In this document: positions 1,099-38,377 of the stretch, one piece after another | Numbering within the stretch: the stretch's first letter is position 1 | Layout of the letters: every line of letters starts with the position of its first letter | Source of the DNA: PVC group bacterium (ex Bugula neritina AB1) | GTDB lineage: Bacteria; GCA-001730085 | Assembly (NCBI GenBank): GCA_001730085.1 | Contig: MDLB01000104.1 | Span: 3,117-67,116 of the forward strand | Direction of reading: 5' to 3' | Length of the DNA: 64,000 bases | Notes under the pieces: model-generated | Told to the model about the DNA's origin: nothing | Database searches by the model: none | What the model saw: the letters and a program-made list of their open reading frames with translations, nothing else | Position numbers and translations under genes: made by a program

Positions 1099-1100
1099 TT

Positions 1101-2924: not shown

Positions 2925-2951
2925 AGAAATAAATGATTTTCCTCTATGAGG

Positions 2952-3521
2952 TTAGAAATGCCTCATAGGAGGATTTTGAACACGGTTAGCCATATCATTG
3001 AAGTACTTTCTAAGGATCAAAACTCTACGACCCCTCCAAGAACCTGCCATATAATCAAAGAACCTTGGCATCTGAAGAACCATCCAAGAAGCCAAAAATG
3101 TACGATACTTAATATGAGCAGATAATTTCGGAGATTCAAGAGTCCCCAATAAAGCTAAAAACATAAAAACCACAATCATACCTTTTAAAAAACCAACACA
3201 AAGACCTCCATAACGCTCTAAGCGATCATAAAAGTTTGTTGACTCACCATACTTTTGTGTTGCAAGTTTAACCCCTTGAACAAGCACATACGTGAAAATA
3301 AGAATCACAAAAAAGGAAAAAAGCTTCAGAAAAAAATAAGGTAACCTAACAAAAGTCGCGATTTCTGAAGATAACACGTGTGTGAACTTAAAGGCAAAAA
3401 AAAGTGCTGCCACCACACTTAAAAAACGAAAAACTTCTCCAGTTAAACCTTCTTTCCATCCCCAATAAATCGTACAGAAAAGGATAAAAAGTATAAAACC
3501 ATCAAGCCAATGTATCGCCAC
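2952..3521 (-). CDS. CvpA-family (colicin V production-like) small integral membrane protein
   Basis: 189 aa with 4-5 hydrophobic helices. N-terminal LDGFILFILFCTIYWGWKEGLTGEVFRFLSVVAALFFAFKF is the typical CvpA-like pattern. Assignment is from a general family resemblance only. Confidence 0.45.
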   Translation of the reverse strand: MAIHWLDGFILFILFCTIYWGWKEGLTGEVFRFLSVVAALFFAFKFTHVLSSEIATFVRLPYFFLKLFSFFVILIFTYVLVQGVKLATQKYGESTNFYDRLERYGGLCVGFLKGMIVVFMFLALLGTLESPKLSAHIKYRTFLASWMVLQMPRFFDYMAGSWRGRRVLILRKYFNDMANRVQNPPMRHF

Positions 3522-3595
3522 TGATTTTTTCCTCTTAAGATTCTTTCTTTACCTTTATAGATTCTCAAATAAACACCAAAAGAAAAACTATCTAA

Positions 3596-6500
3596 TTAAG
3601 CAGCTCTTGAATAGATATCTTTATATTCTCCCATACGATCATGCTTAATCCTCACTATTCTTTCCGTGAATATTAAGATCTGACTCACAGAAGGAGTCGT
3701 CTCGGTCACATCTATAGAGGTGTCTCTCTTTAAAGGATATTCCTGCTTATAATTTTGATGTAACTGAACAAGATGTTTATAGTAGAGAACTAGAGAAGCA
3801 TCTTTAAAGCTCTCCCAATCTGTCATGTTTTCAAAGAAATCCTCCGTCGAAAACAAAGAGAAATAACCTAAGTAAGCCAAATCAATCTTATTCATGTAAA
3901 ATTGGTCAAATAAACTTGTATTTGCATTATAAATAGTAGTAACTTTTTCAAGTAGTTTTTGAAAAAAAGATTCAGATTTAATATCTACACCTTCGCTTAT
4001 TGCCTTTTGCGCAAATTTTAAAAATTGGGTTGCAAAAACGTATCCGGCTTGTGTTTCATTTTCTATACTCAATTGAGTATATTTGAAATATTCGTCAATA
4101 TTTTCAGTTTTTTCTAGTTCAGTATAAGGTGATTGCAAAACATAGTCTTTATGTTTACCTTTAAAACGATTAAAAAGAGTAGCAGACTCTACTTGTCCAG
4201 GAGCAGAAGTCCCACCTGACGATTCTTCCACAAAGTCTTTATCAAAACAGTGTGTAAAGATATCTAATTCTAAAACATTCAAAAGCTCCTTTAGGTGATA
4301 GCCTTCAAATCTCACTTCATCTCCCTTTAAACAATTATCTAGCTCTAAGATTTTTTCCTCTTTCTCGTCTAAAAGTTTTTCAAAATCCTCTATTTTCTTT
4401 TCTATAACATTTTTCAAGCGTAACTGATTAGCATTTCTGAGCTCTGAACCTTCTCCTTCAACATACTCCATTTCTTCAAAAATCTTAGTCATATTAAGAT
4501 CTGACGCAAATAAAGACGTAAAAAGTGTTTTCATAGAGGCATAGTTTTTCTTTATATCCTCAATCAAACTATCTTTCTCACCAGCAGGAATATCAGGTGT
4601 CTCAACTTTCCCAATCAGTTGACGATACTCATCTAAGGACTGGACCAAAGTCTGTGCCTGATCTCTATAAAGCAAAGCACTCTGTCTTCTTTTTAGAACT
4701 TCGGGACGTTCCTTTGCATATATTTCTGATAACAACTTAAATAGAGTAATGGAAAAAGCATCTTCGCCTTCACTCGTAGATTTTTTTATTTTGTCTCCAA
4801 GAGCTAATAAAATCGTCCTCCAATCCTTATAGGTGCGGATTTCTATGTACCTCTGATCCCACTTTTCGTGTTGCTCTAAAGACTTACCTTCTTCTCTGGA
4901 GTCACTTAAAGCCTTTCTTAACTCTGTTGACAAATCTGTTTTCAAAGGGATGAATGGATTATCAACTCCAAATGGCCTATTAGCTATAACTGTGCTTAGT
5001 TCTTTAGTGTCTAACAAGATCCTCACACTATTATCATCTTCTTTTCCTGCACCTTGATATTGCTCAAAAAGTTTTTGAAGTTCTGCCATTCCGCCCATCT
5101 TCCCCATGTCAGGTAATCCAGATTTTCCCTCGGAAAAACGTTCTCTAACTTTTAGCCAAGATTGCCCAACAAAGAAAGACATTGGATTAATACGAAAATC
5201 AGGATTGTCCTCGAATTTTGGATTGATTTGGGGATCTTTCCCAAGAGATTTAAAAGATGTTAAACCTGAAGAACGATAAAATTCAGAAAAAAGAGTTTTT
5301 GACCATTCATATTTTTTTTCAGATGCTCTTTTTTCTCCAAGCTTTTCGATAAAATGTTTATTTAAAAAAGACTTTAACTTATAAAGACGACGCCCTGTCA
5401 CAAAGTTAAAAACCCGACGAAAAAACTTCGGCTTTTTCAAAGTATCTTCAAAAAGGGAATGACCTTTTTGAACCATTTCAGGATGTTCCAATAAGGTCTC
5501 CTGTAAAATTTTATCAAAAAGTTGATTAAATTCATTTTCTTTATCAGTTAAGTCAGCAGGATCTTTATAAGATTTATTTTCAATAAGTTTTTTCAATAAA
5601 TCTTTTAAACTTTTGTCATCCAAAGATCCATTTGTTTTTTGGAGCTTTTGAAAAAAGTACTTTTTAAGTAAAGGCTCATTTTTCAAAAAGTCTATCCCTT
5701 TTAAGGTTTTAGAGGCTGCTTCAAGAATCAAGAAATCATTAAAAGAATTGATCCCATGTTCATCGCAAACGCGGGAAGCGTCTTGAAAACCTGATCTTAT
5801 CGTAAGAAAGAACTCTTCGTCATATTTCTTTAAAAATGTATTCAAATCTTCATCTTTCAATCCAGCCTCTTTAGCTAAGGTAAGTGCCTTTTTATAAGAT
5901 GAAAAACACTGTTCACGAAATAAGGTCATCAATTTCAATTGTCTACGCTGTTTGTAGTCTCTTCGGATAGAGCTTTCTTTTTTGAATAACTTCAAAAATC
6001 TAGACTCACGTGGACTAAAGTCTTCTAAAGTTTGCCCAACTTCTTGAGCATTTAAAGAAGCGATCTGTTTCACTCTGTCTTCGGATAGATTATATAATTT
6101 GCCTTGAAAGTCTGCATTTTCATTAAGCGAATGATTATATCCTCCTACTCTTAAAAAATCGTCTTTGCCAGAAAAGTATTCAGAAAGAGTTAAGTAGGCC
6201 AAAGCATTATTATTAAAAAGTGGAGAGTTTTTAACAAGAACAATCTCAGTCGTCTTAGGAGTACCCTTAGAGGCAAGATAATCAACTTTTAAAGTCAGCT
6301 GTGTCACTTCTTTACCTTCGTAGGAAGCAACTTCAACTTTATTTATCTCAACACCATAAATAAAATAAACCTGGTCCACACCATCGGCATTTATTTCGCG
6401 CAATGCTCTATTAAAAGGCATATCAACTTGTACCGTAGACTCTCTAACATATTTGTTAAAATTTTCCAAGTCGTCGTTAAATTGATAAGTCGCAACATCA

Positions 6501-9500
6501 TTGCCTTTAACAACTTTATCTTCTGAGTATTCCAAAGATTCCAAAGAAAGAAACAGAAGTGACCTTAACCAGTCATACTGATCAACAGTCATCCAAGAAT
6601 CTTTCTTTTCATACCAGTGAGAACCCGTTGACTGATACCACTTGAACAAATTCGCACCATTCAAGGTTTTAGGGCCCCTAGCACCAGGCCTTTTCGAAAT
6701 ACCAAATTCTTTGATAACTCTTTTTAAAGCTTCCTTCTTTTTGTCCTCTAAAGAAAGTTTCTCTCCCAAGAAATCAGCAGTATACATCAAATACCAAGCA
6801 CAAGTTTTTTTATTCGCTTTCAAAACTCGTTCAAACTCTTGTTCACTCGTAAGAGAAGACCATTCATCAAAAACCGGTTCTTTAAGTCTACGATTAGCCC
6901 AATAATAATAAGCTTTCTTAAAAAAACCTTTTTTTAGACCCTCTACACGCTTAGCTTGTGCATTTTTAGCTTTATCTAGAGCCTTCTTATAATAAGATGA
7001 TTTCATGATCACATCCCGCGCACTATCCTTAGCCTCCTTAACTAGAGTAGCATCTAAAGATTTGTCTACTGTTCCCAAGTTTTCTTGAAGAGTTTTGCTC
7101 ATAGCCTTCTCAGTAAGAATAGATCTAGTGATTTCTCCTGAATAGGTTTTCTGATTTGTTTTGATCAACAAGTCATTAACTCCTAAACCTTCAATAACTT
7201 TAACAACATCTTTAATGGTAAAAGCTTCTAGCAAACTACCGGCCGAAGAAGCCTTTGCTTCTGAAACAGATCTAGAAAGTTTCAAGTCTCCATCAAGACC
7301 TTCTCGGTGTAGCCTAAAAATCTCCGCCATCTCCGCTTTTAGTCTATTGTAATTAGTATTAGAAGGCAATGCATTAACTGCACCCCAAGGATGCTGATTC
7401 TCTGTAGACAAAGTACTTGCTAACTTAGATTTTACAGTCTCACCTTGCAAAGCATCCAAAAGTTTAATAAAACTCTTTTTGGCGTCTGCAAACATCTCTT
7501 CTAAAACTTTTTGAGTACTCTTCGTATTAAGGGTAACATTTTGTACCGCTTTAGCTTTTTCATTTTGAACATTGATCAAATTTTGCTTACAATTTTTAAA
7601 AGCACTTGCCAACTCTTCTGTAAGATTTCTATAGGGTTTCAACAATTTTATCAATGACTGTATAAGTTGCCTATGAGGGGCATAAAAAGCTTCAGTAGCA
7701 ACATGAAAGTTTTGAGCTCTTTCGGCAGTAATATCATTTTGATTTATCATATGAAAAAACTTCGAAATATTTATTCTTAAGGCGTTTTGATCACCTTCAA
7801 ATAATTCAGAACTTTTAACTTTTCCATCTTTTTCATAATAAAACTTTCCATCCCACGCATCTTTCTTAAAAAACCAAAGCTCTCTGTCTGAATGAAATTT
7901 TACAGTTATTCTCTGACCCTGTTCTTCCAACGTAACTCTTAATCCCCGATCTCTACCAAGACCTTGTTGAACCTCAGACTTTCTCGCTTTATTATCACAT
8001 AAAAATAAAACTTTTTGTCGAAACTTACCTAGTCCAGACATCTCCAAGTTTGTCCCTGTAGCACCTGCCGGAAATAAATACACCGCACCTATATTCAAAC
8101 CACGTGCATTCTCAGTGAAACCGGTGGTATCTCTCATGTTAAAAATACATCCATCTTTATCTTTTAGCAGATTCCCCTTATTAAGCAATAAACCGTCTGG
8201 AACTTTTGATTTTCCACTATCTAACAAGCTCTTCGCCATATCTTGATCAATCAAGCGCGAAACAGAAAAATTAACTTGCTTTGTCGCATTATCTACCCAA
8301 GAGTGATAATCTTCCTTTAAAAACAAACGCCAGTCACCCACAAGATCTTTAACAATAACATCTTGTCCTTTTTCCCCCATCACATTTAATAAAGTTATAA
8401 GATTAGACATATCTGTGGAAATCGTATAATCAACAACCAAAAGATGACCGTTAGGTCCATTTTTATCAATAGTCATCTTTTCCACAACAGCTTTAATTTT
8501 CGTGTTAAGAGCCGCCTCTAATGCTTGGTCAATCTGAATATAATTTTCTTTTCCGCGTTCGCCTACAAGAGAATAGTCTTTACCTAAAACATCCAAAAGG
8601 ACTTTAGCAGCAATTTCTCCACCCTCTAACCTTAATTGAACAACACGTGAAGCTAAATCTAGTTTTTCAGCAGAAGATAAACTTTTACTCTTTATATAAG
8701 AAGCCTCTCTCTTGATAACTGTTAAAAGATTTTCTAGTTTTTCAATTTCAGGATAAATATAACTCTTAACAAGTTCAATATTCTCCAACCCACGAGTATC
8801 ACGATGACTCAAAGCTTTTTCTATAAAAAGTTTAGTAAAGGCTTTTAATTCTGAATTTTGCGCGCAATTGGTATCTAGAAATTTCTGAATATTTTTACCG
8901 CCTGACAAGAAAAATTGAACAATATTTTCTTTCATACTGATGATATATTCAACTTTTTTAGCTGTCATCTGTATACTTTTATCCATTTTTAACATTTCTC
9001 TCAAGGCATTTTCTATCGTTTCTTTATAAGCATGAGAAACCTTATTCTTATTCTCTACACCTTGAATAAAAGCTTCTTTCACACTTGTTTTTTCATTAAA
9101 TACCTTCATTTCACTAGAATGTAATCTTGTCAAAGGAGCTTCTGTATATTTAGCAAAAACATTACCATCTATTAAAATATCAGGTTGAGAAGTTTCCCAC
9201 GTGGAAACACCAAACTGACGTAATAAAGCAACGGAAACTTGTGTAAGAGATCCTGAAAACCCCATAAAGCTCCCACCAGCTTCTTTAATCGCTAAGAGTT
9301 GTTGAGGAATAGAAGTCGAATAGGACTCGGGTTGCAACTTGATTTGACTAGCATCATTTATAATTATTTTTGCATACTCTTTAGGATCTCTATAACCTCC
9401 TTTAGGGATTGTTGATGACAAAGTCACAAGGGCTAAACTCAAGACATGCTCAGACTCGGTGAACCTCTGATCAGGCTGTTTTTCACCACCTGTCATAGGA

Positions 9501-12500
9501 ACAATTTTCATAACTCCACTGGTATCACGAGTGATAAAACCTTTTGAATCAACTTCAAGAAAATAGGCTTGGTTCTGACCAAATCTATTTTGTAACTCTT
9601 TATTAGATGTCAATCCTCCCAAAGCTTGAGCAAACCTATCTAAAAAACGAAAAACAAACTGAGGTGGAGAATAAGGATCCTTCTTACCTTCATCATAAAT
9701 ACTTTTCATACGATTAAATAACTCTGCCTCTGAATATTTCACCTGACCATCATTACTTTTCTCACCATAGGTTTTCAAAACTTCTGATGCTTTCTTACTA
9801 AGAGCATAATCTTTTAAGCCTAATGAAACACCCCAATACTTATCATTCGTTAATCTTTTTAAAAGTTTACATTTCAACTCAGCTGAAAAAGTTACGTCTC
9901 CACCTTGACCAATATCTGATCTTTTAAAACGCAAAGCTCCTGTGCCTAACTCCTCACCTTCTTTCAAAAGGAATTTTTCCACCTTTTGAGTTAGTTTCTT
10001 GCCGTCAAATATTTTTGCGTCCGCCATCCCTTGCACCTTCATCTCGCTTTCGATAAGTTTATAAAGCTCTTGGGTTACATAATACGCAAGAGCAGCATTA
10101 GTTTTCCCAATAGAAACCTCCTGTCCGTCAGTCCCTGTCACAAAGCTTTTAGGATTAAGATATTTATGAACTTCATCAACAACCCTAGTCCCTGAAAGTA
10201 GCTCATTTAAAACTTTAATAGAATCACGACTTTCGGGCTTATGAGGGTTATCCGCATTCAATTTAAGAAAGTTCATTGCATCCGTCGCCGTAAAAACAAC
10301 TCTCGCTTTCATCAATTTTTCAACTTCGGCGGGACCTCCCAAATTAGCATTTCTCAATTGAGCTGTCCAGTCTTTACTCGTGTTTGATCCAAACTCTGAG
10401 TTCAAAATATATCTAAATTGAACATTATCCATTTCAGATATTTTTCCTTCTTCGGGAACCTCTATAACAACCTTATGAGAGTTTCTCCAATAGCCATTTG
10501 AACCTAATAGAAACATCACTACCGCAGGATTCACAGCTGTCGTTTTACCACCACCAGTTGGAATTTGTGCCGCTAAAAAGTCTTTCATCAACAAAGCAAT
10601 TATACCTTCCAACTGAATAGGTAAGAAGTTGAATTCCCTATTATTGAAGAGTTTCATATGTTTCGCAAAAGTCTCCAATTGACGTGTAAACATAAGAAAA
10701 ATAGCTGTAGAATGTGCTATCTTAGCAAGAGACTCTTTATTAAAAGAAGCAGACTTGAATGAAGGACTCTGAGTGTAACTTTTAAGAAGAACGTCTATAA
10801 GTTTGGGCATATCAATCATCCCTTTTTCACCTTGAATTAAAAAGGTCTCATTAAACTTCTGCCACTTAGAATCATAGTCATATGTTTTATCAAAGCAAGT
10901 CTTTTGTCTAGAATAACCGACCTTCTCAGTCATAATATTCTCCATTTGTCTAACGATATCAGACTGTTGCTGTAGAGATAGATTAGAAAGACCTTGCTCC
11001 TTTGCGATTTTACTAATCAGTTCTCCATAATTCAAAAACATAGCAGAATGGCCTGAAGCCGTTTTAGCAAGAATTTGAAATAATGGATCTCCAGCTTGGC
11101 CAAGTTGAAAAGAATCAAATCTAAACGCATTATAAACTTCACTAACTCTTAAAATATTTATTTTTAGCTCTGAAAAAACCTCTTTTAGTTTAGTTTCAAA
11201 CAAGCTTAAACCTTCAATATTTATCCTTAAGTGCGTTATTCCTTGATTCGAAGATTTTGAGAATCCAAAATTATGGTGGACCAATCTATCTATAATCAAC
11301 TCTGCTAAGCCTTTCAAGTTATCTTTAGATAAAGTTGCAAGAAATCCTCCCCTAAGCGATTCTTTTTCCAAGATACTTGTAATATTTTTTTTCAAAAGAT
11401 CATAAGTAAAAGTTCCAGAAGTTATATCAAAACTATCGGGAAGTTGTGCCAAATGATGTGCTTGTTGACCTGCAAAAATATCCATGGCAGCATCTCTAGC
11501 TTTGTTGAACTCAGCATTTTTTTGAAATTCTGACCATTTTTCATGATGTAAAAATTTTTCGTTCAACAACAATTTAGACATTTGAGAAGATTTGGAAGAA
11601 CCATCACCTCTAGAAGTATCTGTTAAGTTTAAATTGCTATGAAGAGAGAGGATCTCTGGCGGTAAAGATTCCTGACCCTCCTTTTGTTTGCCTTTATAAC
11701 TGTCTATAGCTTTACCCAATGAATCTTTAAAGCTTTCTGTTCCAGTCACATGTTTCAAAAGAACAACTTCTAGTTCACCTTCTCCAAAAAAAGTACTCAA
11801 ATCTTTCAAAACTTTTACATTTCTAAAAATAGCCATAAAAACAGCAACTTGTTGCTCTATTTTTAAGCTTTGAAAGTCAGAATATCCCAATTTTTTAGCC
11901 ATAGAGTTCAAAGCACTTTCATCAAGAGCAACTTTTCTAGCAAAGAAAGATCTTTTCGGTATCGGCCGAAAGGAAGCCTTCACTCTTTCTAAAAAGTCAG
12001 CCCGAGCAGTTTGATCTCCACTCAAAACCTCCGATATCCTCTTCAAGTTAGCTAATGTATCTCCATTTAATTGATCTAAGGTCTCTGATAGTTCACCATC
12101 CGAACTGTAACCACCATAGAGAGTTTTATATACTCTTAACTTAGGAATAAATGATTCTGCGAAAAGAAAATAGCCTTTACCTACAAAACTTTCTGCAACA
12201 AAGGATGGATCTGAAACGTTTTGAGCCTTTGCTATGTCATAATAACGTAACATAACCGCAAGACCAACCGTATTTTGAACCAAATTTTCAAGAATTAACT
12301 TAGCTTGTCCATGCTCCCAGTCTTCAGTTTGCTTTGCTTGATGAAGTTTTTGCAAACGATTATAGACTCTCTTTATCTCTACGTCTAAAGTAGAAGCTTT
12401 CGTACTTGAATCCTTAGCTCCAGGTTTAGAATCAAAATCCTTTATAGATGTTTTAAAAGCATCGAAACCTTGTTCTCTTAATAAGACAATATCTTTAAAA

Positions 12501-15500
12501 ACCTTGATTAACATTTCCTGTTGATTAACCGCTTTACCCTCAAAAACCTTATCTTTAAACATGAATTCAGCCAAAGTGGTGAGATATTGAGAAGGCTTTT
12601 CTTCTAAACGAGAGCGAAAAGACTCTGCAACTTTTGTTCCTAGTTGCGATTTCAAAAAGGACTCATAATGCCATCTCTTTAACATCATAGATAAAGAGAA
12701 AGACTCATCTTTTCCTTTGCCAAAAAGTTTTTTCAAAGGTTGAGTCATCTTCTCCATTAAGCTACCAAGCAAATGCTGCATACGCCCCTTCTTCTTCCCC
12801 TGAAATTGATTACTATCGCTTTCTTCCCAAATCCAGCTTCTATATTTATTCTTCCAATAGCGCAAAGTTATGATCCTTCTTCTAAAAGGCATCGCATTCA
12901 AGTTAAGTTGGATCTGCTCTTTGCTAGGGCGCAAGTTATTCCAGAAAAAATCGGTAACTTTATTTGTGTTTCCAGGCTCCAGAAGATACATCTTAGAATT
13001 GTCAAAGTTACTGCTCCTACTTTGTGCTTTAATAAAGATTTGTTGAACATCATCAATCCTACTTATCAGTTTATGGTCTGCCGCATTCTCTCTCAAAAAC
13101 TTAATCAGTTCACTAGGTGTCCTAACCTTTAATTTCCCATTCTCATCCATTTTAACACCCGAAAATTGACCTTTAGCTAACTTTTGTCCAAAAGAGCCCT
13201 TGTAAACTTTTTGATAAGTCGCAATACCTTTGCCCGAAGAAAACCTAACTATACCAGAGTTAATATCTAAGCCATTGTGCTTGCGCTCATAAGATGACCT
13301 ATATAGGAGATCTCCAAAAACATCCATCAATCTATCCCATTGATTAAACATAGTTATCAGGAACTGAACAAAACTCAATCTAGGCCTTTGCGGAGAAGAA
13401 GAGGACTTAGCATCCGATTTTAAAGTTTGTTTCGAGCCTGAATCAAACTTTTTTTCGAAAGAATTAGATCTATCAACCATTTTACCTCTTAAATATCCTG
13501 TGAGTCTCATCCTTAACCCACCAATACCCTGAAGAATCGTTCTATTAACAAAACCATAAATCTTCATAGGCATCGAAGCCAATGAATACACCGTACCCAA
13601 GAAAATCTTAGATATAAAAAATAATGCCTTATAAAGATGTAAAGTGACCGTCGTAAAGCCTAACTCCGCAAGTTCCTTATGCATATGCTTTTCTAAAGCT
13701 TTTGCCAACATATTCACCTGACGGACTTGGGCTCTATCAAGCACTTTAACTTTCTTGATCTCTTTTAAGGTTTTTTTCTGTCTTTGCAATGACTTAAGAT
13801 GCTTATCAGCATATTCAAACTTCTTTTTTAGACCCTGTTTCGCTTGCCTAAAAGTCCTCATAAAAAGCAAGCCAAAAATTCCTCCAACTACACGAGCGAC
13901 TTGATGGTACTTCTCTGTAAAAAGATTGCTTTTATTAAGTTCTCTCTTAACTCTTACATTTTGCTTTTGATCATCTGTATAAATGAACGAAGCATCTACG
14001 GAAGCAAAAACTAAAGGTAAAGCAAACATTGTCCCAACAACGCCTCCAATCAAAAGCATAAGAAATGAAATAACCAACATCCCTAAAAAAACAGCAATAG
14101 CTCCGCCTTTTGCACCTTCGGTCCAATCTGATATCGTATCAACAAAAGTGTCGTATATCCAACCTTCAGGCAAACCTAAAAGACCTTCCATAAAACCAAC
14201 ATATATTAAGGAAAAACCTTTAAGAGATTCCCACATATCGTACATGCTTCTCAAAGCTGTTGCAGCTAATCCCAATAAGCCGAAAAAGAAACTTGGAAAC
14301 TCCACAAAAATAACCGTAATAAAAAATGCTGAATACTTAGAAGCAAGAGATCTCTGTCTATCTTTCTCTTCCTGTGTATCTGCAAGAAAATTTGCTGATA
14401 TACTATGAATAATAATCCTAGTCGCAGAATAAAGCATCCCAACTGCCAAAACCGAAAGAAGCAAGGGGAGAACAGCCCCTCCAAGGGTTAAAGCCATCAC
14501 AGCAAAAAATATACCTCCTAAAAGGTGTAAAAAGGACATCGCCAACTGAAGTCCTACTGTTTTAAACTTATCCTGCCAACCGATGGAGATTGATTGTATA
14601 TCCTCATCTAAAGCATTACGTAAAAGTTCAGCACGATCAGAGTTATCTTCTATCTGATCTGATGCACTATTACTCGTCATTTCTTTTTTGCCTGTAAAAA
14701 GATTAGAAAGAGCTCCAATAGCTGTACCAACAACATTTGTACCAGTTTCTTCGATTAAAATATAAAAACTGATAGCAAAAGCCTCCACCCCTTTGGAAAA
14801 GTCAACATCATTTCGACCTAAGGAATCATAAGCCTGGAGATAGACTTGTTCATTTTGTTGATCGATATTAGCTATAAAGCGTTTTTCTCCGTGATTCAAA
14901 CTCACGATATCAGTCACATTTTCTCCCATTTCGTAAAAGAGCGTGACTTTGGCAAAATCAAAACTGTAATAAGTATAAGTAGCAAGCATATAGCCATAAG
15001 CATTATATGTGTTAAAGTTTTGCTCAAAATCATAAACAAGTGTAGTCTTTTGTCCGTTTTCATCTTTCTTACCTTTTTGCTCTCGGCCCCTTTTCTTTAG
15101 CACAGCTCTCTCTGAATAAATAGCTTGACCTTGTGAATCATATAGGTGATTTCCAGAAGAAAACTCTGAACCTGGATCTTCCGGACCACTTGTTTCTTCT
15201 CGAAAACTTTTCACTTGACCCTTTTTTCGTTGCAATCGTACGGAGATATCCTTTTCCTCCAACTGATAGCGAAAGGACCCTCCGTCAAAGTTGATTATGA
15301 AATCTTTAATAAAAACAACCTCTTCACCATCTTCTGACCAATACTGTATGCGACCTTCTTTACTATCTCCATCATCAATCCAATGCTTTCTAGATCTTTC
15401 AGATTGAGCGTAAGAATGAATTTTTCCTAAAATTCCTCTTGAACGTAAGTTCTCTGCTTCAAAATTATCACTACGATTATAAGTTTTCTCGTCATAAGCT

Positions 15501-18500: not shown

Positions 18501-21500
18501 GTTTCCCGATGAAGTTGAACTTGATATGGAGAAAACTTGTTATAGAAAATATCCTGTTGACGATAAGATATAAGCTTAGGGTCTAAAAAATATTGATCTT
18601 TTTTGCTTAAACGATTCAAAGCATCATACTCATTATGAACAATCTCATTCCTAAAAAGATTTTGATCCGAATCATACGACTTACGATTTTCTACAACAGC
18701 TAAAGTATCTCCAACAGTGTTGCCGCTATAGCTCCGACCTATCATCAAACCTCTAACCTGCTTATTATTCGCATATGACAAAGATTCTTCAAGAGTTTTT
18801 CGATCTAAATTATCATACTCAAAATACTTATTATCGGTAACAACAAAGTCAGATTTTGCTATATCTTTTAAAACCTCAGCAGAAGGTAAAGAAATAAAAC
18901 CTTCCTTGTCTGTTTTTATACCTTCAAAAAGATACTTAAAAGATTTAACTTGATACCTTTCTTCTAAAAGACGCCTTTGAAGATCTCCTAAACCTTCAAC
19001 GGTGCCATTTTCCATTAATCTTATATTTCCACCACCTTTTCTATCATAACGAAAATCTTTAACATACTCATATCCGTTTTTAAAAGTTGTGGAGAGAACC
19101 TCTCCAGATGGTGAGGACGATAAAGCAAGCTCATATTCAAGACGATAGTCATTAGCATCATCTTTTTTATAAACAGAAAGAGTTTTGCTTTCCTCAGACA
19201 AAGCTCCCCCTTGAAAAATTTTCCTTAAAGTTTTAATGGGACGACTATATTTATCATATTGATAATATTCTTCAGAAACTCGACCTTTATCATTGTCTTC
19301 AAAAGTCAATTTAGATCCTCTAGCGTACTCCGTAGAAACTTTTTTAGATACTTGTTTATCCAAGTTATACTCATAATTAACTTTTACAGTAAGACCAGGA
19401 ACTTCTTCAAAGTTTTCCTGATCATAACCATAAGTGGTGATCGTTTCCTCTTCAAGCAAACCACTCTGTGTAAAAGTTCTAAAAACTCTCTCACCACGCA
19501 TTTGAGAAAAGTTACCGCCTGTCACATCAAAAAGGGTTTTCTTTGAATATGTCACACGTCCCTCTTCATCAAAACGATAATTATGCGTTTTCTCTATTTG
19601 AGCAGATGTTCGACGTCCTGTCACATCATAATAGGCTACCTTCTTTTCACTCAAGACAACATTTCCCTGAATATCACTTGTAAAAAGATGGGTGATAACT
19701 TTATAAAGGTCACCTTTTTCATTGAAAAATTCTTCACGACTACCTTCTCTTTTATCTTCGGAAAGAAATTTAGAAAGAACCGTCTTCGATTGATCATTGA
19801 CGGACAAGTCCCCTACATTTTCTTCAGGTACTTTGGAAGTCTTCCGAAAATCTACAGATAACTGTTTCCCTCTAGCATCATAGGTAAACTTTCTCGTTTC
19901 TCTATTTTGAAAGTTCAAATTTTCCAAGAAAGAACCTTCTTGAAGAAGTGAACTGAACTCTCCAGAAATGATTTTATCTTCAATAGTCTTATAATAGTCA
20001 GGGTCTAAAAATGATCTTTTTTCCATAACAACCCTATCCATTCTATCGTATAGAAAATCGTAACGTGTTGTACGAGAATATTCTCCCCCTTTATTAATAT
20101 TAGTCACAAAGCGACTTGCAACACGTCCTATAGCATCATATTTCATTTGAACATTAGAGCCTACTTCAAAGTCCCAACGTAAAAATTCTTCATTCCATAC
20201 ATAGTCTTTTCTCTCTTGAGCAATAACTCGATTAGTGTCAAAAGACTTGTTCATATTATCCTCATAGTAATAAACCAAGTCTGTTTTTCTTCTAACATCA
20301 GAGTTTTCATCGTAAAAAAAGTCTCTCGAACGAACAACTTTTCCAGTGACATCATAAGAAGAGATGCGGTAACCTGTTTCCTTCTTTTCTAAATAGCTCG
20401 AATATTTAAAGTTCACATCATAACTACGTGACTTTAAAAGTTCTTTTGTTAACCTAAAAGCTTCTCCAAGGATATGTATCGCAAAAGCAAGCAAGTCGCG
20501 AACCGTTTGAAAAACATCCGATGGATTCAAAAAAAGATTGATAAAGATATTCCTAATACTTTCAATAAGAGTAGGATTAGAGTCATTCAAAGCATAACGT
20601 TCTTGCCACCAAGAAACATACGTATCAATGATCGATGTCTTAACATTTTCAAGATCATCAGATTTAGATTCAAAGTCAGCATCGTTTAACTTATTAGCAA
20701 TCTCTATTTGACCAGTATCTGCAACGTTATATTCGTATTTCTCTATTTTTTGAGAAAGAATTTGACCTCTATGTCCATATTGATAGTCATCATACCTCTC
20801 CTCGCTTTTCAGAAAAAGTCTTGTCTCACCTTCTTTCAACAAATCAAGACTACCTATGCCTGCTTTAGATTTACCCTCAACATAAGCATAGTGCTTTTTT
20901 GAAGAAGAGCGAACATTGTCAAAAAGATTATAGGCAATATCCTCTTCATCACGAGAAATCAAAAGCGATGAACGAGCATCTTCAGAAAAAGCTTTTTTTA
21001 TAGAAACCTTTTTAGAAATAAGACCCTTGTCAAAATCATAAAAGTCTTCAAGCACTTCCTCTTTCAAAAGCCCTTGTAGCTTCTGTACACTAAATCTTTC
21101 ATATTTCTCATACATACGTATACGTGTTTGAGCAATTTTTCCATTAGAGTGATACGTATAACTAATAGAGTTGTAGAGAGATTGATTCATATCGGAACCA
21201 TCTTTTTTTAATGGCGTTTTGAAAAAAATACGATTTTTTACTAAACCATCTTTTCTATACGTGATATCAAGTGTCTGTTCTCGCAAATTATTCAATCTAT
21301 TTAAAGAGTCAACTGTCCTCCGAACACCATTTTGATCATACCCATATATCTTAACCTCATCTCTAGTCACGTTGAAGAAATTATTCTTAGCAATATCTTT
21401 AGATATATCTAGATTTTTTGAACGTACTTCATTCAAGTCCCATAAAGGATTTTTGCCATCAAATAAATCGCCTTGACCATTCAAAGAGTATCCTTTAAAG

Positions 21501-24500
21501 GTTTCTTTTTTAGGCCTATTAGAAGAGTGATCATACCCTTCAATCTCAACAGTACTAATAGTGGAAATATTAAAAATATCTATCGTTAAAAAAGATTTCA
21601 ATATTTTTTCAATACTAAAAAGATTTCCAGTTTTTCCTAAAAGCTGATCAACAACATTTTGAGCAGTTTGCTCAAGAGCACCCGCTTGAACCACAAGAGA
21701 AACAAATTTTGAGCGAAAAGCATTCGATTTATTTTTAAATTCTTCAGAAAAAAATGAACTCAACTCATCTGTCTCTGTTTTCAAATCTAGCAAGTACTCT
21801 TTAAAGTTAGAAATCTCTAGCCCAATTTCTTGCCAAGCATCATTTATCAATCCTATCTGCTGTCTTAAGGAGTCAAGACCATATACAGCTTTTTCATTCC
21901 TAAAAATGACTTCTTTTTGCTTATCTCCATCTTCTGTATAAAATGTCTGTGAATATTGACTATCTTTATAAACAAAGTCAGAAGGATCATTCTTCGAAAC
22001 ATTTTCAGATGAACTATATTTAAATAGGTCTTTTTGAACGAAAACTCTCTGAAAGTTTTTATTATAAGAAAAACTTTGTGTGGACAATTCTATATCATAA
22101 TACTGATTGCCACTTGAGTCAGGATCTGTACCTTCATGAGAAACTTTTCTTAATGTCCAAAGTCCATCTTTTGCTCTAATGTAGCGATATTTAATTTCCG
22201 TTGATCCCAAGATATAGTTTGTTTCAACTTTTCTATTTTCTACAATATTTCCTAAATGGTCCAAAATATCAATATTTGTTTCAAGATATCCTTCGGATGC
22301 ATTCCATTGGATCTTTTTCAATTCCGAAACAGTTTCTCCGTCAGAATCATAAACAAAAACATCTGTTTCAACCGACTCACGATTATTTTTATCATTATAT
22401 GTATACCTAGAAAGAGTTAATTGAAGACGGCCTTGACTATCATAAGAAAATTCAGTAGAAACCAGCAAGTTACCTCTTTCATCAAAAATAGGAGAAGAAA
22501 GATCCTCTTCTGTATAAAAACCATACGATAGGATTTTTTCTATCATATCTGAAGAAAGTCCAGCTTCCCATTTAGAGTCTAAAGAATAGACACCATTATC
22601 GATACGATCCTCATTCTTAGAAATCATTCGACCTGCAATATCATATTTCATATCCCATGTATAACTTATATTTACATTAGCATCTCTATCTTCCGTGCGC
22701 GTATTTTGAGATAAAAGACGCCCCATTCCATCATATGTCATACCCCAAACAGTTTTTTTCTCTATGTTGTCAAAGGTTTTGTTTATCTCCTTATAAGAGG
22801 AAACCTGACCAAGCTTATTATAATGTATATTTCTTCTCTCCAAAAAGCTTGTCACACCATTGACAATTCTTTTTTCAAAAAATGAATCAACTTGACCATG
22901 TGTGTTATATGTATTCGTTCTCTCAGTAATAAAGTTAGAAACAACATTACCACCAGCATATTTATATTCAACATCTTTATAAGAAGTCACTCTCCCTAAT
23001 TGATCATAATCTGTATTAATCCTAGAGGTCTCTTGTGTAATCTCTGGGGTAGAAAAATCACGAATGGTGTCTGTATAACTGATCGATCTACCAAGATTGT
23101 CAAAAATAACATTATCACGAATTGTCTCAATCTGAACAGATTCTGAATCAATGCCAAAGCGTGTCAAAAGCTCTCTATAGGAAGATACCTTTCCTATATT
23201 TTTATCATAAGATAATGCTTCCCACGATGTATGCAAAACCATGTCTTTAGCATCTGAACTCGTTGATATATTCTCATAACTTTTTCTACGACCCAACGCG
23301 TCATAAAGAACATTCTGATAAGAGCTTCTACGCGATCTAGAAAAAATGTTACTATCTTTTGTCGATGCTAAACTACTTTCAACTATTGTTTCAGTGTAAG
23401 CCTCTCTACGACCCAAAATATCATATTTTATATTTTCTAATATAACCTTTTCTAAAAGATCAAGAGATTTCAAACTTCTACTTGCGTCTGTATATCCAAC
23501 AATTCTTCCTAGTTTGTCATATTTAGCACCTAGGCGAACCGTCCACTTACTATTAGATGGATCTGAAGAGTTCCACTCGTGATCACGATAACCCACAACT
23601 TGCCCAATCGCATTATAAGTAATACCAAGGCGTTGCGTTCTTGTTCTAATATCTAAAAGAATACGTCCATCTTTCAATAAAAAGCGACGACCTTCACCTT
23701 TATAAGTTTTCTCTTGCCCTAAACTATTATAAAAAGTAGCATGCCTAACATCCGTTTTGGTTTCTTCTGAATCATCTGTTTTAGAGACCTCTACATAAGA
23801 AAACACCCTGTTTTTATCATACGTGATATCCATTCTTCTAACGCTTGATGTCTCTTTTAAAAGAGGTTCATCTTTCAAATCTTCATTTTTCAAAGGTGTT
23901 TCTTTTTTCTCAAAAACATCAAAGTATTCAACAACCTGACCAACTGTGTTATATCTTATATCACTTCTAGTCTGTTCAGTTGTAAGCCCTGTATTCAAAT
24001 CAAGAGTTTTTTCAACAAAAGATTGCAGCTGACCATCCCCGTTATAAAGCATATTCTTACGGTCAACTTTTTTAAGATCAACAAAGCTAATCAATAAATC
24101 ACCCTTCAAATCTTCTAAAGAAATATCAAGACCATTAAGAGAAAGAGATCCACCTTCGTAAATTTTTTGAATTTGAGTAACCGTTAGGTCCTCCCACTTC
24201 GTAACGCCAGTTCCCATTCGCCCTAGTTTAGAATAGTCCACTTGATTTTTTTCAATAAAACTTCCTTCTCGACGTATTTCCTCACTATAACTTTCAACAA
24301 AACCTTTAGCATCATAAACAGTTGATAATCTTGTAGTCTTCGACCTTTTTTTTAATAAAGGTTCATATTTATAATCAATAAATGTTATCAATTGACCTTT
24401 TTTATTATAAGAAATAGCTTCTCTAGAAGTATTCTCTATCTCATTTTTTTCAAAAAGTATATTCTTTTCAACTTTTCTTAAGAAGCGAATTTTTTCTAAA

Positions 24501-27500
24501 GATAAACTCTCAAAGGCTTCATTAATAAGCGTATTAGCAAAAGAATTAACAATGAAAGGTTCAGTTAAGAAAATCCTCTCTAACTCATGAAATATACTAT
24601 TTTGAAGAGCCAAAGCCTCATCAGAAGCGTTATTAGCTAATTTTCGCTGATCTGCCATATTCTTTTCAATAGAAATATCCGTACGGAGCTCATCAATAAA
24701 GTCCGTCACAAACTTTCCTTTAAAATCAAATGACCAAGGTTGCTCAGATTCTTGTTTCTCTTGCAAGATTCTCTCTAAAAGCAAGCTAACATAGCCCTCT
24801 ATTTCAGAAGACCATTGTTTTTGAGTAGCGTACTTAGAAACAATATCTCTCAAAAGAGCATAATTAGAGGTATGTGAAGATCTAAGAAGCTCTTCACTCT
24901 CATCAGCACCCATCGAGCGACTTTCATCAGCTAAATAAAGTTCAAACTGGTAAGTTTCTCCTCTAAAAAAAACTTCATCACCGGCAAAAAGAAACCTTTG
25001 TTGTTCAGGAGACATCTCATCAAAAGTACCTCCCGCCTTCCAAAAGTCACTCCACATCTCTTCAGTCCATGCGTCTGGAACAACAAAAGTAACTTCTGTT
25101 CTATCCAAAGATTTTCCTCTAAGGATTTTAGTCTCATCATAACTTTCAACAAGACCAACAGAATTATATTCCGTACTTTTTCTAAAAACAGTCTCTTTCA
25201 TATTGGGATCTACGTTATTGAAAGTGGTTTGACGATATGAGTCCAACTGACCGAGCTGAGTATATGTCATCTCATCTTTATGTTGGGAAACAACTTCTTC
25301 AAATGAGAAATCATAAACACGGGCAACAAGGGTATTGGCATTGATCATTTCCAAGTCTTTTTCATTAATAACACCATCATTAAAAAGATCAAAAGCTTTC
25401 CAGTCTTCATCAGTATCCTTCAAAAGACCTTGATCTGACAAATTCATTAACGCATGCATTTTTTGAAGCAAAAGATCTTTCTGATATTTGATCTCCTGTC
25501 TCCTAGTTAAACCTTTTTTACGAGAAAGCTCTCGTGAAGAAACAATCTGTCCCAAGTTATTGTAAAAAATATCAAAATTATCTGTTGTAACAGTTATATC
25601 AGGTGTATCACTAGAAGTTGAAATATCAGTATATTTCTCCATTTGACCCAAAAGGTTATAAGAAATAGAAGAACGCGTCAATGAACTCGAGCTCTGAAAA
25701 AGCTCAGGATAAACATTCTCTGACAAACGCAATGTGTCTCCCTCAAATAAAAGAGACTCTCCCTTTAAAAGTGCAACCTGTTTGTCAACAGTAAAAGAGG
25801 CTCTAGATTTAAAATCACCCATTGTCTTATAGGATAGATTACCTGCAGAGTCTTTAAGTTCAAAAATAACATCATCAAGTTTACCAAGTTTTTCAGAATA
25901 GGTAAGCCTTACATCTTTAAATAACCTTTCGCGACTAGCACTATCATATTCCGTGTTTATACGAAAAGATATTTCTTTAATATCAGGTTTAGATTCATTC
26001 CACGATTCATCAACATAGGAAACTAATCGATTAAAGGAGTCATAGGTTGCTTGATCACGTGAAAGAAACGTTACTTGATCTAAAGTCACCTCTTTTTTTT
26101 CTTGATGACGAACAATAACATTTTCATTCCCTTGAGCAAAAGAACTAAAATCCTGACTTTTACTAGTTGAAAAATATTCAAGCGCATCTGAACTAAGATC
26201 TTGTTCAACAATAATTTCTGACTCAATCTCCACCACAGAAGCATTATCAAAAACACCTGCTTGTTGTTCAAGTGATGCATTAAACTCCTGTTCATCAAGA
26301 TAAAAAGTTTTTGAAGCATCAATTATTTTAAATAAACTTTCACCGCGTAAAAGAGCTTTCTTATGCCTTTCGGACAAAGAATCAAAATCACTTTGTGACA
26401 TGTCATCCGAAAGAACAAAATATTCATCAACAATTTTTTCCATAGGCGTGTCTTCAGGAATATAACGTCGCGTAGCTCTTTCATAACCGATGATTTGACC
26501 CAAAGCATTCTTACGTATGCCAGATTGCAACGTTAAATCATGAACACCTTCTGAATCAACGATCAACTCTTCAAAACTTATTTCGTGCCCCAAAGTATTA
26601 TAATTTATATTATCTTTAACTTTACGAGTATAGCTATCAAGCCTACTTTCAACTTTTAATCTATCAAGAGTTAAATAATACTGAGCGTTCTCTTCAAAAA
26701 GATCATACTCTTCCGGAGAGTCAATACGGTTGGTAACATTCACGTTTTCTCCCGCGTATAATTTCCCTAACTCCTCATCTGTTAAAAGCTTAGCTATCTC
26801 AAGTTCTTTTAACTCCCCTTCTAAGAAAGTCCGCATAGAACTTTCAAATCCATTTCGAACTTCAATTTGATCTATTTTTCTAACATAACCCGCATCATCA
26901 TAGTCGGTCAAAACGCGCTCTGTAGTATCGATAACATTTGGTGAATCACTAGATCTACTTGTTTCAATAAAAGAAAACAATCTCCCTGCATCATCGTAAG
27001 TAACACCGGATCGATTCGTCACATTAAAAACATCTAGTGTTTTCATCCCAAGCCTATCTCTAGAGATTTCTTGATCTCTTCTTGTGTAACTAGAAGAACG
27101 ACCAATCTGATCATAAGACATATTACCTTGAACACTATATATATCTTTTTGAAAAATTTTCTGAAAACTTAAAGGCAGAAAAACAAGTTTTCCATCCAAA
27201 AAAACCTTTTGACCTTTCAAAAGTTTTTGTCTATCCGAAAATCCCAAAGATGACCAGGAGGGTTCCTTAGAGTCATAAGACTCGTCGACCAAAATTTCCT
27301 CAGAATAACCATTTTCTTGTGTTTTTTCATTAAAAGAGATCTCAAATCCTAAGCTATTCGTAAGAATATGAGACTTTGTTGTAATTGTTTCTTTTTGAGG
27401 GGAAGACGACGACCTTTCAACAGACTGCAAAGCAGAGATTTGACCAACATCATCATATAAAGTATAAACTCTCTCCCGAAAAGTAACGATATCCAAAAAG

Positions 27501-30500
27501 TCTTCTTCCGTCCAACTCAAAACAAAAGAAGGATCATTCGTAAGGATCTGACGAAAATACAGCAAATCTAATTCGTCAACTTTCCCATCAGCCCCTTGTT
27601 TCCCTTGAGAGTCAACCAAATCAAAATGACTATCGTAAAAACCATCTCTCATCAAAGATTGTATTTTTAAAAGCAAATTTTCCTTCGTATACTTGTAGAC
27701 TTGGATAGATTTTCCCTCTCGATGAGTTTTCTCGTCATAAGAAAACAACCGCCCATCTCGATAAACACCTCTCCAATCTACCGTTGTCACAAGAGATGCA
27801 TCTTCGAAAGACCTTGCTTTAGAAAAGTCCGTCTGAGGAAGAGTGCTTTTTTTCTCATAACGTGTCACAAAACCGTTATCGTCTCTTTCCAAAGCCTTAT
27901 ACTGAACCATCTCTAAGGTTCTTAAACCTTCTCTCTTTTTATATTTCTCGACAAACTCAGCGTAGGATCCATCTTTTAAATCCAAAAGACTTCTTGATTC
28001 ATCCATCTCAACATTTTGAATATAAGAGATATATCCGAAAAGCATTTCACTGTCAAAACGAGAATCCTCTGTCTCTGTGATTTTCCATAAATTTGGAGAC
28101 TCAGCATTTCGGGATAACTCTGTATAAGCTATCGGTTGACCAACTTTAATTGTATCAAGAACAACCTGACCATCCTTAACCCTCGTAAAGTTCAAGGTTT
28201 TATAAACCATATTTTCTCGAACAAGCTCTTGCCAGCGATCTTTTATAGAGTTATTAACAGTAATGAAAATATTATCACCCGAAGCAAGATCGGAAAGATC
28301 AATAAAACCATCTTCATTTCTATCCTGTAAATGCAATTTTAAAAAGTTCTGACCCAATGTTTCTTTAGCCAAATCAGACCCAGAGACAACATCTTGTATC
28401 ATTTGAAACAACAAAGGTTTCCTTAAAAAAGCAACATCTTCTGAATCAATAACACTATCTTGATTCGAATTTTTAACAAGATATTTCAAAACAGAGTCCC
28501 TAACATCGTCAAAGGGTTTCTGTTCAAGATTAAAATCAGACAAAGACTCAAGCAAGCTTTCCCTATAAAACGAATCTTTGGAAACAAAGAGATCAATCGC
28601 TTTAGTAAGCTGAGCAACAGCAAGATCTCCATTCTCAACAGAAGTCAAAAACTCTTGATAATCTCGACTTTTAAATATTTCAAAATCTAAAGCATCAACA
28701 ACCTGATCACCATTTATATCATTGAGTAAATGCTTTAGCTCAATCGAATGAACACCTTCATTAATACCAAGAACGAACTGCTCTAAAACATCTCCCTCAT
28801 AAGAAAAATTATCCAAAGCCGAACCATTCACCGAAACAAGGTTTTTAAAACGCTTCAAAAGACCTCCTTCATAACTTCCTTCCCAAGAAGACTCCTCAAC
28901 TCTATTTTGAATATCATCTATTCCATAAAAAACAACAACAGAGTTGGTCTTTACCTTATTCCCTCTACCATCATACTTATTGAACACATCTGTTTTCTTT
29001 TTTCCATAAAGAGAACTATTAGAAATTTCTTCGTAAGATGAAAGCTGGCCATTAGTATAGTAACGACCTTTTGAATCTCTCTTTGCATTCCACTCAACCT
29101 TTTCGAGATCCAAAACATTACCTTGCATATCCATTTTTGAACTTCTAGAAACATAAGAAACAACGGATCTATCCATTTTCTTATCAGCTTCTGCATAAAT
29201 ATAGCCTCCAGAAAAAGTAGAATGGCTATATCCTAAAGAGTCAACACCTGTTTCCCGAAACCCTAAAATAAAACCATCTTCATTATAAGGACCTCTATCG
29301 AGCTCATTACCATCTTTATCCAGAGCAACTGCTTCCCAGTGAATATTTAAGATTTCTTCTCCTTCTGAAATCTTTTGAGCATCATAAGATAAAATATTGT
29401 CTTGCTCATCGTACTGAATATTTCTCTGACTTTCCCACAAAACTTGCTCCCCAGATTCATTCAAAACACTCCGATCATAAGCGCTTAGTCTTTGAGCGAA
29501 GTCATATTTCATATTATTCATTTGGGTCACAGAAAAAGATCCCTGAGAGTAAGTCTCTTCGGTATATCCAAAAGATCTACCCTGTAAATCGTATGTCATA
29601 TTGAAACGATGAGAATCCGTACGAACACCTTCTACAAAAGATGTTGTCCTATATGACCGAATAGAACCATTAGCATCATATTTTGTATCATACATCTTAG
29701 TTGAATATGCTTCACCATCCTCATTAACACCCTTTTCTTCATAACCTAAAAGCCTTTGGTCTGAGTCGAAAAAGACATTTTCACGAAGAGAAGTGGTTTC
29801 CTCAACTTGAGAATTTTCAAAAATCATTTGACAAAAATCTGAAAAACTAGCAAAACCAATACTTTTCATCGCTTGGGAAAAAATATACTCAGCTTTCCCA
29901 CCTATTTTTTTACTATTCATTTCATCACTAAGATCTTTTAAAATGTTTTGGTCTTTTGAAACCTGTTTTAAAAAGTCTGAATAACTAGCATAGTCTTGAT
30001 TCATTCTTTGAAAAAATTCAAAATCTCCAAAAACTGCTTCAAATTCAGACTCACCCAAAAGACTCACAAGTTTTGAAAGCTCATATAGATCTTTCGAAAA
30101 AAAGTTTTGAATCTCATCTTTTAATTCATTTTTATTGGCATAAAGATTCTTAACAAATTTAGAGTCAAGCTCATAAGATATTGCAGCACCCTGGATATTA
30201 AACTTTAAAATATTCATATCATCTTGACTAAAAGTACTTTTAACCACCTTGCCAGCTTCACTCATCTCTTCATATTCAGAGTAACTATAATCAGTATACT
30301 TCTGAAGTCGACCTTTATCATAGGCTCCTTCAACACGTGCATCACGGATTTTGGTCTCATTGAGTTTATGCATAAACTCATTAACATTACCCCTTTTACG
30401 AAAAACATTTCCCGTCGTTGTTTCTTCGTTATAAAGCAAAAGCCCTTTACTATCGTAAGCAGCTTTTCCCCAACTTTCTGTCATTTCAGAAACAATAAGA

Positions 30501-38235: not shown

Positions 38236-38377
38236 TTTTTTCTCCTTTTTCTAGCCGAAGAGACTTTCAAGATATTAAGACTATTGTAAAATACATCATG
38301 AACTCTCTTGAGGCTTTTAAAAAAATATAATCTTTCTTTAATCGTTTGATTTTTTGTAAACACTTATAAAATCCTTG

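Follow-up and report, generated by a model that had tools for sequence, protein, structure and literature searches.

A giant YD-repeat protein with a predicted membrane anchor and a putative ATPase tail in a PVC bacterium from Bugula neritina

The giant gene

We analysed a 64,000-nucleotide stretch of DNA, referred to here as the window, from PVC group bacterium (ex Bugula neritina AB1), a member of the PVC superphylum (Planctomycetes, Verrucomicrobia and Chlamydiae) (assembly GCA_001730085.1, contig MDLB01000104.1, positions 3,117 to 67,116). Its dominant feature is a giant open reading frame (ORF) on the minus strand at positions 3596 to 32596 of the window, which starts with ATG and runs uninterrupted for 9,666 codons to a single terminal stop. 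All features whose coordinates are given below lie on the same strand. The source bin, AB1_div, comprises 1.91 Mb with a GC content of 34.7%, is 96% complete and was sequenced at 20.8x coverage. Its 16S sequence is 90% identical to that of candidate division NPL-UPA2, and it occupies a deep branch in the PVC superphylum. The bacterium is uncultured and is located mainly in the ovicells of its bryozoan host. The giant gene is not mentioned in the paper that describes the bin (Miller et al. 2016, PMC5041132).

Stop statistics and codon usage both identify the frame as a coding sequence. With the base composition of the ORF itself (A 0.33, C 0.14, G 0.21, T 0.32), the probability of a stop is 0.081 per codon, which amounts to one expected stop per 12 codons. 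The log10 probability of encountering none in 9,666 codons is -353, corresponding to a probability of about 1e-353 for a chance open frame. Each of the five other frames contains between 470 and 1,331 stops across the same interval. Codon usage was scored against 20 neighbouring genes in nine blocks of 1,000 residues, covering residues 1–9000. Frame 0 is preferred in every scored block, by +0.46 to +0.60 bits per codon, and the two other frames on the same strand have negative scores. The GC content at the three codon positions is 0.45/0.32/0.26, compared with 0.45/0.34/0.28 for the neighbours. Since codon usage and positional GC content both resemble those of the neighbours, the gene is native to the genome and codes for protein throughout the scored length.

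Because the source is a short-read metagenome-assembled genome (MAG) at 20.8x coverage, we considered whether the ORF could be an artefact, be it a chimeric assembly or a pseudogene, decaying or fused, whose product is not a single protein. We regard this as very improbable. A chance origin of the frame is excluded by the stop statistics, and the coding signal is uniform and neighbour-like in all nine blocks. Long or near-identical DNA repeats are absent from the ORF, where the longest repeats are 25–37 nt at no more than 85% identity, and a single 46-nt tandem array is present. A repeat-driven misassembly is therefore unlikely. The independent Logan assembly of run SRR4020083 contains a gene of 9,666 residues directly after the same trkH gene (contig SRR4020083_35366), such that a second assembler arrives at an identical call. 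The predicted parts of the product, described below, also follow one another in a topologically coherent order, from signal peptide through ectodomain and transmembrane segments to a cytoplasmic tail. The giant gene is real, native and chromosomal. The first-pass annotation of this DNA had argued that a frame of 9,666 codons is essentially impossible without selection, and the chance estimate, the uniform coding signal and the matching length in the second assembly confirm that the frame is real.

The flanking genes carry the locus tags AB834_06155 and AB834_06165, and from this numbering the giant gene is probably AB834_06160. The exact sequence of its product is absent from a collection of 15 billion proteins in which the products of the immediate neighbours, OED34659 and OED34661, are present, and for this reason no self-match appears in any of our searches. 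An AGGA Shine-Dalgarno-like site precedes the ATG at positions 32607–32610. A sigma-70-like promoter, TTGACT-18-TATAAT, matches the consensus at 11 of 12 positions and lies about 67 nt upstream of the ATG (positions 32663 to 32692), from where it may drive the gene, as judged from the consensus match only.

Repeats and predicted topology

Residues 36–6012 (positions 14561 to 32491) form the presumed ectodomain, an acidic region rich in tyrosine, aspartate and serine. The repeat unit is about 30–32 residues long and follows the pattern R....Y[DN]..G[RQ]...SY.E....S..P. Units are clustered at approximately residues 200–500, 940–1210, 1600–2050, 2180–2500 and 2720–3400, and become sparser and more degenerate over residues 3440–5930, where they are broken by helical-looking linkers. 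A BLAST self-comparison finds weak internal similarity over residues 120–5060. Word-seeded searches with both halves of the protein returned only one relative (E 2.1e-11), the 7,733-residue hypothetical protein KCHDKBKB_02153 from an Elusimicrobia MAG, which we refer to as P0001. A hidden Markov model (HMM) trained on the giant protein together with P0001 finds 44 units, all of them before residue 6000. When trained on P0001 only, the HMM counts 51 units for the N-terminal part of the giant protein (127.7 bits, E 6.7e-43) and 0 for the C-terminal part; shuffled sequences yield no more than 2. These counts bear out the YD repeats that the first-pass annotation had described over some 6,000 residues, and none of the units lies past residue 6000.

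The densest cluster of units lies at residues 2720–3400 (positions 22397 to 24439). A 751-residue query spanning residues 2700–3450 matches the NCBIfam family TIGR01643 (YD_repeat_2x) with 33 bits and E 5.7e-8, above the cut-off of 15.8, and the N-terminal half of the protein matches the same family with 20.5 bits. The Pfam family PF05593 (RHS_repeat) remains below its gathering threshold of 22, with 13.5 bits and E 0.1, and is unreported when the halves of the protein are scanned. The YD/RHS identity put forward in the first-pass annotation is thus upheld by one of the two curated profiles and missed by the other. A profile built from the repeat units does not retrieve the Rhs proteins in the PDB (best E 0.79). 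The HMM trained on P0001 scores 7.3 bits against E. coli RhsA, in 15 weak stretches, compared with no more than 2.0 bits for shuffled RhsA. An AlphaFold model of residues 2840–3440, for which 14 paralogous fragments of the giant protein itself served as the alignment, shows a run of beta-hairpins with a mean predicted local distance difference test score (pLDDT) of 53, rising to 70–84 for residues ~3160–3310. At E≤0.001, Foldseek matches this model only to teneurin-3, teneurin-2, mosquito SGS1 and Yersinia TcBC, and for the confidently modelled part the first fold matches are teneurin, SGS1, TcBC and the Rhs shells of type VI secretion systems. The evidence points both ways, and the repeats are most likely of the YD/RHS type.

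Canonical RHS repeats are about 21 residues long. The giant protein differs from known Rhs, TcB-TcC and teneurin shells (E. coli RhsA; PDB 4IGL, 7Q97, 8QJA, 8R51) in its longer unit and in a repeat region that is approximately 4–5 times the length of such a shell. The Rhs_assc_core family has no Pfam match at E≤0.1, and the patterns DP.G, DP.G[LWM], P....DP.G and P.{4}D[PA] have 0 matches in the 9,666 residues, in agreement with the earlier failure to find a DPxGL or PxxxxDPxGL motif by reading. The giant protein also differs from these shells in having no detected Rhs core, aspartyl autoprotease, encapsulated C-terminal toxin or PAAR, VgrG or TcA partner. Its orientation is opposite to that of teneurins, with the ectodomain N-terminal and the presumed cytoplasmic part C-terminal.

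The remaining anatomy was read from hydropathy, composition and the positive-inside rule. Residues 1–35 (positions 32492 to 32596) form a signal-peptide-like N-terminus, assigned by eye with the -3/-1 rule, in which MQQCSQDKKG is followed by FFLYKLICFFTLQIFLFTSV and then by DLSFA, with cleavage predicted before QS. The expected order of KK, hydrophobic core and SFA before Q is present. Hydropathy finds no hydrophobic segment in residues 35–6012. A cluster of 3–5 predicted transmembrane helices follows at residues 6013–6205 (positions 13982 to 14560), in three hydrophobic blocks at residues 6013–6059, 6089–6113 and 6164–6200 (47, 25 and 37 residues, respectively). The final 3,460 residues, 6206–9666 (positions 3599 to 13981), make up a tail rich in K/L and in K/R that is presumed from its composition to be cytoplasmic. 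The composition flips from acidic and tyrosine-rich to K/L-rich exactly at the transmembrane cluster, and the net charge changes from -9 ahead of the cluster to +16 behind it. Cysteines are distributed asymmetrically, with 2 in the ~5,960 presumed extracytoplasmic residues (36–6000) and 11 in the tail, from a total of 15. An N-outside, C-inside topology fits both the charge and the cysteine asymmetry.

Two calcium-loop-like sites are present in the presumed ectodomain. The first, residues 1293–1304 (DINGDQVVDALD, positions 28685 to 28720), is an EF-hand/dockerin-like loop that matches Pfam Dockerin_1 with 25 bits against a gathering threshold of 22.9. The second, an EF-hand-like loop at residues 1425–1436 (DRNEDGFIDLSD, positions 28289 to 28324), is the one match of a strict EF-hand pattern in residues 1–6000, for which shuffled sequences give a mean of 0.13. 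A canonical dockerin module was considered and rejected, as the two loops lie 130 residues apart and are not paired 22-residue repeats. The signal peptide, the EF-hand-like loops and the central bundle of transmembrane helices had all been proposed in the first-pass annotation, and each can now be assigned to defined residues.

The comparison with P0001 suggests a second way of reading this architecture. Both proteins have the ~30-residue YDxxGRLxxYxE unit and a signal-like N-terminus, and in both the repeats, which extend over about 4,600 residues in P0001, are followed by hydrophobic segments. Sequence similarity is confined to the repeats. The C-terminal 3,000 residues of P0001 contain an Ntox10 toxin domain (E 3.8e-11), whereas the giant protein has no match to a toxin family. 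By eye, P0001 also carries two duplicated, near-identical modules of ~600 residues with GxSxG (AHSQGT) within residues ~4650–7733, and shows none of the ATPase motifs that are seen in the giant protein. A GLIPFVGDG stretch of P0001, likewise noted by eye, is reminiscent of a pre-toxin TG motif. Judged by its domains, P0001 is a polymorphic-toxin-type protein, and its modules suggest a polymorphic toxin with several warheads mounted on a repeat scaffold of the kind found in the giant protein.

The giant protein could by analogy be an Rhs-like polymorphic toxin or contact-dependent effector, in which one or more YD shells or a delivery filament would precede a hydrophobic module for translocation into the target membrane, with the tail and its ATPase as payload. 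P0001, with the same repeat type and hydrophobic segments ahead of Ntox10 and the duplicated modules, speaks for such an arrangement, as do the fold matches to Rhs, Tc and teneurin shells, which encapsulate toxins. We find this explanation improbable given that the similarity to P0001 stops at the repeats and that the RHS-associated core and the DPxG and PxxxxDPxGL motifs are undetected. No recognisable toxin domain was found in the tail with Pfam, NCBIfam, PADLOC or PHROGs, the last two of which gave no match at all. The window holds 29 ORFs of at least 150 residues, of which 28 were scanned whole and the giant ORF as two halves, and none of them is a PAAR, VgrG, TcA or TpsB gene. A candidate immunity gene was not found either: cvpA lies 74 bp beyond the stop of the giant gene, and dnaG comes next. 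The distribution of charge follows the positive-inside rule, as would suit a resident anchor, and a payload of 3,400 residues would, to our knowledge, be far above any known Rhs cargo.

The C-terminal tail and the neighbouring genes

Motifs and a sub-threshold match to Pfam DEAD place a putative first RecA-like domain of a superfamily 2 (SF2) ATPase of the DEAD/DExH type at residues 7320–7481 of the tail (positions 10154 to 10639). The motifs are FLPIQLEG (7324), a Walker A sequence PTGGGKTT (7346–7353), VVFTATDAMNFL (7433) and DEVH (7474–7477). Both their order and their spacing are those of a DEAD-like first RecA domain, as in SecA and other SF2 ATPases, with a Q-like motif, PTGGGKT, a motif Ib-like element and DEVH. 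Candidates for motifs III (GFSGSL, 7779), V (PAGATGTN, 8176) and VI (QQGLGRDRG, 8210) were picked out by eye only, and would belong to a second RecA-like domain at residues 7779–8225 (positions 7922 to 9262); neither profiles nor structure support these three motifs. On this motif reading, candidate motif III lies ~300 residues past motif II, a long insertion at the position of the preprotein-binding domain of SecA. A helicase-like ATPase in the tail is weakly supported by these features, and a SecA-like motor is a hypothesis that draws on the position of the insertion and on literature precedent.

The ATPase could also belong to an anchored giant surface protein with a tail unrelated to secretion. 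The tail would then be a signalling, scaffold or nucleic-acid module, such as a generic DExH helicase, or, put differently, the protein would have arisen in evolution when a surface YD protein became fused to a cytoplasmic protein that contains a helicase. DEVH is the usual form in DExH helicases (Lhr, Hel308 and RecQ, for example), whereas SecA has DEVD, and the only profile match is to the generic DEAD/DEAH family (PF00270) and not to SecA_DEAD. The preprotein cross-linking domain (PPXD), scaffold/wing and zinc-finger elements of SecA were not found in Pfam or NCBIfam, and the protein has no CxxC. A phmmer search (--max) with E. coli SecA, a bait that scores 1,319 bits in a check against the PDB, gave no match to the giant protein. 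Set against these points, a nucleic-acid-binding or signalling domain is likewise undetected, and the ~300-residue insertion after motif II, by the motif reading, sits at a point that is a hallmark of SecA and uncommon among other SF2 families. Published giant proteins of the same layout, described below, carry SecA-type motors. On balance we think a tail of this generic kind somewhat unlikely.

Relatives of the tail were not found by any route, and outside the ATPase motifs it has no match in Pfam, NCBIfam, PADLOC or PHROGs. Word-seeded HMMER searches with residues 4767–9666 against 5.8 billion proteins returned no relatives, and an exhaustive phmmer search with residues 7250–8350 against 1.84 billion representatives gave 0 matches. 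Scans with back-translated patterns found no relatives of residues 6000–9666 in GTDB genomes and JGI metagenomes, and none of the N-terminal half in JGI metagenomes. The ATPase region has no match among PDB sequences, nor do the two halves of the protein. Tblastn against plasmids and phages returned nothing. A two-unit repeat profile used as query gave 67 candidates and 0 matches, and missed P0001 itself. A scan for neighbours of trkH returned 80 loci at no more than 52% identity from many phyla; since 0 of these 80 carry a relative of the giant gene, synteny is of no use in finding one.

The giant gene lies among housekeeping genes. The window contains trmD, rnhB, murB, ddl, ftsQ and recA, the nqrA-F genes, a moxR/DUF58/batA-D operon, and trkAH followed by the giant gene, cvpA and dnaG. 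The accessions of the neighbours are OED34658 (dnaG), OED34659 (cvpA, AB834_06155) and OED34661 (trkH, AB834_06165). A mobile element or defence island as the setting was ruled out on the basis of these neighbours, and a eukaryotic, host teneurin-like gene was ruled out by the bacterial context and the codon usage. All 29 ORFs and the sole tRNA gene (Ala-GGC, positions 55129–55201) are on the minus strand, and each 2-kb bin of the window has a negative GC skew (-0.16 to -0.34). The single strand and the uniform skew indicate that the whole window lies on one replichore, with strictly co-oriented genes.

Three further loci were noted in passing. A complete 'aerotolerance'-type operon of MoxR, DUF58, BatA-BatB (VWA), TPR, BatD and TPR-SH3 proteins occupies positions 35603–44473, just upstream of trkAH, and no functional tie between it and the giant gene is evident. 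An operon for the Na+-translocating NADH:quinone reductase, nqrA-F, is located at positions 47278–53044; such operons are found in other PVC members, e.g., Chlamydiae. A 462-residue ORF at positions 56829–58217 lies directly downstream of ftsQ in the murB-ddl-ftsQ cluster, the usual position of ftsA/ftsZ. It has no Pfam match at 1e-5 and no PDB sequence match at E≤1. As FtsZ was reported as not found in the AB1_div genome (Miller et al. 2016, PMC5041132), the ORF may encode a division protein that has diverged strongly.

Proposed role among giant anchored proteins

Giant proteins with a long extracellular N-terminal part, transmembrane anchors and a divergent SecA-DEAD-type ATPase that lacks the scaffold/wing have been described, for the most part in Omnitrophota, with others in Actinobacteria, and their authors proposed that they serve in attachment to prey or host and that the ATPase has a role in export of the giant protein itself (West-Roberts et al. 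2023, 10.1101/2023.11.21.568195). A signal peptide and transmembrane helices occur in 39% of 916 long Omnitrophota proteins, which include a SecA-DEAD architecture cluster (10.64898/2026.06.07.730766). Giant bacterial proteins are also reported to carry dockerin/EF-hand repeats, and antiparallel beta-helix tubes that are RHS-like (10.1101/2023.11.21.568195; 10.64898/2026.06.07.730766). The first-pass annotation had suggested that the protein studied here may represent an undescribed class of giant envelope protein. This suggestion is not supported, because the layout of ectodomain, transmembrane anchor and SecA-like ATPase was already described computationally in these two reports.

The resemblance to the Omnitrophota giants, and to their 'Dockerin-type' in particular, is one of layout and was assessed from the published descriptions. 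In both cases a predicted N-terminal extracellular part without transmembrane segments leads to an anchor near the C-terminus and to a predicted intracellular SF2 ATPase. A signal-like N-terminus, a transmembrane cluster and the charge and cysteine asymmetry of this layout are found here, by hydropathy and the positive-inside rule. EF-hand/dockerin-like calcium loops are likewise common to both, and the predicted tubes of the Omnitrophota proteins resemble RHS repeats. The hosts are PVC-related with small genomes, and all of these proteins are functionally uncharacterised. The differences are also substantial. The Omnitrophota giants have at least 30,000 residues compared with 9,666 here, and carry SecA_DEAD and preprotein-binding domains detectable by Pfam, whereas SecA_DEAD is undetected in our protein. 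They contain dockerin, TSP3, CBM, carbohydrate-active, peptidase and GNAT domains, as opposed to the one Dockerin_1 match and two calcium loops found here, and they often adjoin loci resembling type II secretion systems (T2SS), none of which occurs in the window. The ectodomain of the present protein is dominated by YD repeats, and its lineage is a different one. Taken together, these features suggest that the giant protein represents the published layout in an extremely divergent form, rich in YD repeats, from another lineage of the PVC superphylum.

We propose that the giant protein is a resident of the cell envelope, with a Sec-exported YD ectodomain for contact or adhesion, a transmembrane anchor and a cytoplasmic tail whose SF2 ATPase may drive export of the protein itself. 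We rate the chances of this proposal as about even. Export would be started by the N-terminal signal peptide in a Sec-dependent manner, and some 6,000 residues of YD/RHS-type beta-hairpins, helical linkers and the two calcium-loop-like sites would fold outside the cytoplasmic membrane, where the repeats could form an extended or spiral beta-sheet. The ectodomain would thereby provide a long adhesive or contact structure that reaches out to the host or to some other cell. Transfer would be halted by the transmembrane helices at residues 6013–6205, odd in number (3–5), which would also anchor the protein, such that the 3,460-residue C-terminal part remains cytoplasmic. There, the SF2 ATPase (of the DEAD/DExH type and possibly SecA-like) may power or control export or assembly of its own ectodomain. 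This scheme is built on direct observations, namely the ORF, the YD-type repeats, the hydrophobic cluster, the asymmetry in charge and in cysteines, and the presence of Walker A and DEVH, and we infer from them the topology, the ATPase activity, the self-export and the role in adhesion.

Several points weigh against the proposal. The match to Pfam DEAD (PF00270, E 0.004, 17 bits) is below the gathering threshold of 26 and covers residues 7326–7481, i.e., positions 2–131 of the 167 in the profile; it is the sole match in an hmmscan of residues 7300–8240 at E≤10. A second RecA domain, Helicase_C, ResIII, SecA_DEAD (PF07517) and SecA_PP_bind were undetected in Pfam and NCBIfam. Of the helicase/ResIII-like ATPase named in the first-pass annotation, only the first RecA-like domain has a match, at sub-threshold level. 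A single-sequence AlphaFold model of residues 7290–8240 has a pLDDT of 35, and its Foldseek result is noise. The number of transmembrane helices is bracketed only at 3–5, and the side of the membrane on which the tail lies hangs on it. In a diderm, a 6,000-residue domain would also have to cross the outer membrane, and the 64-kb window has no secretion-system, outer-membrane or T2SS-like genes. Finally, the sole homologue, P0001, is of the polymorphic-toxin type and illustrates another possible use of the same repeats.

In its most far-reaching form, the proposal would make the protein a lineage-specific, auto-exporting, inner-membrane-anchored contact protein with an SF2 motor that is unrelated in sequence to SecA or any known protein. 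We consider this version unlikely. If it is correct, a cytoplasmic machine of 3,400 residues would thread, tension or retract a YD filament of 6,000 residues with which the symbiont grips bryozoan or bacterial cells, and a new, mechanically active envelope organelle would be produced from one gene.

The envelope-protein proposal as a whole would extend the layout of ectodomain, transmembrane anchor and cytoplasmic SF2 ATPase beyond Omnitrophota and Actinobacteria, with an ectodomain of the YD/RHS type. It would join two subjects that have so far been separate, the Rhs/teneurin shells and the giant anchored proteins. The 3,400-residue tail, which is without detectable relatives, is a large piece of protein 'dark matter'. 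At 9.7 thousand residues, the protein is much more tractable than the Omnitrophota examples of 30–150 thousand residues, and it offers a usable model for export and anchoring of ectodomains of several thousand residues in bacteria and for the role of the attached ATPase. The giant gene takes up ~1.5% of a 1.9-Mb genome, and for this reason its product is probably central to the life of the bacterium with its host or its neighbours.

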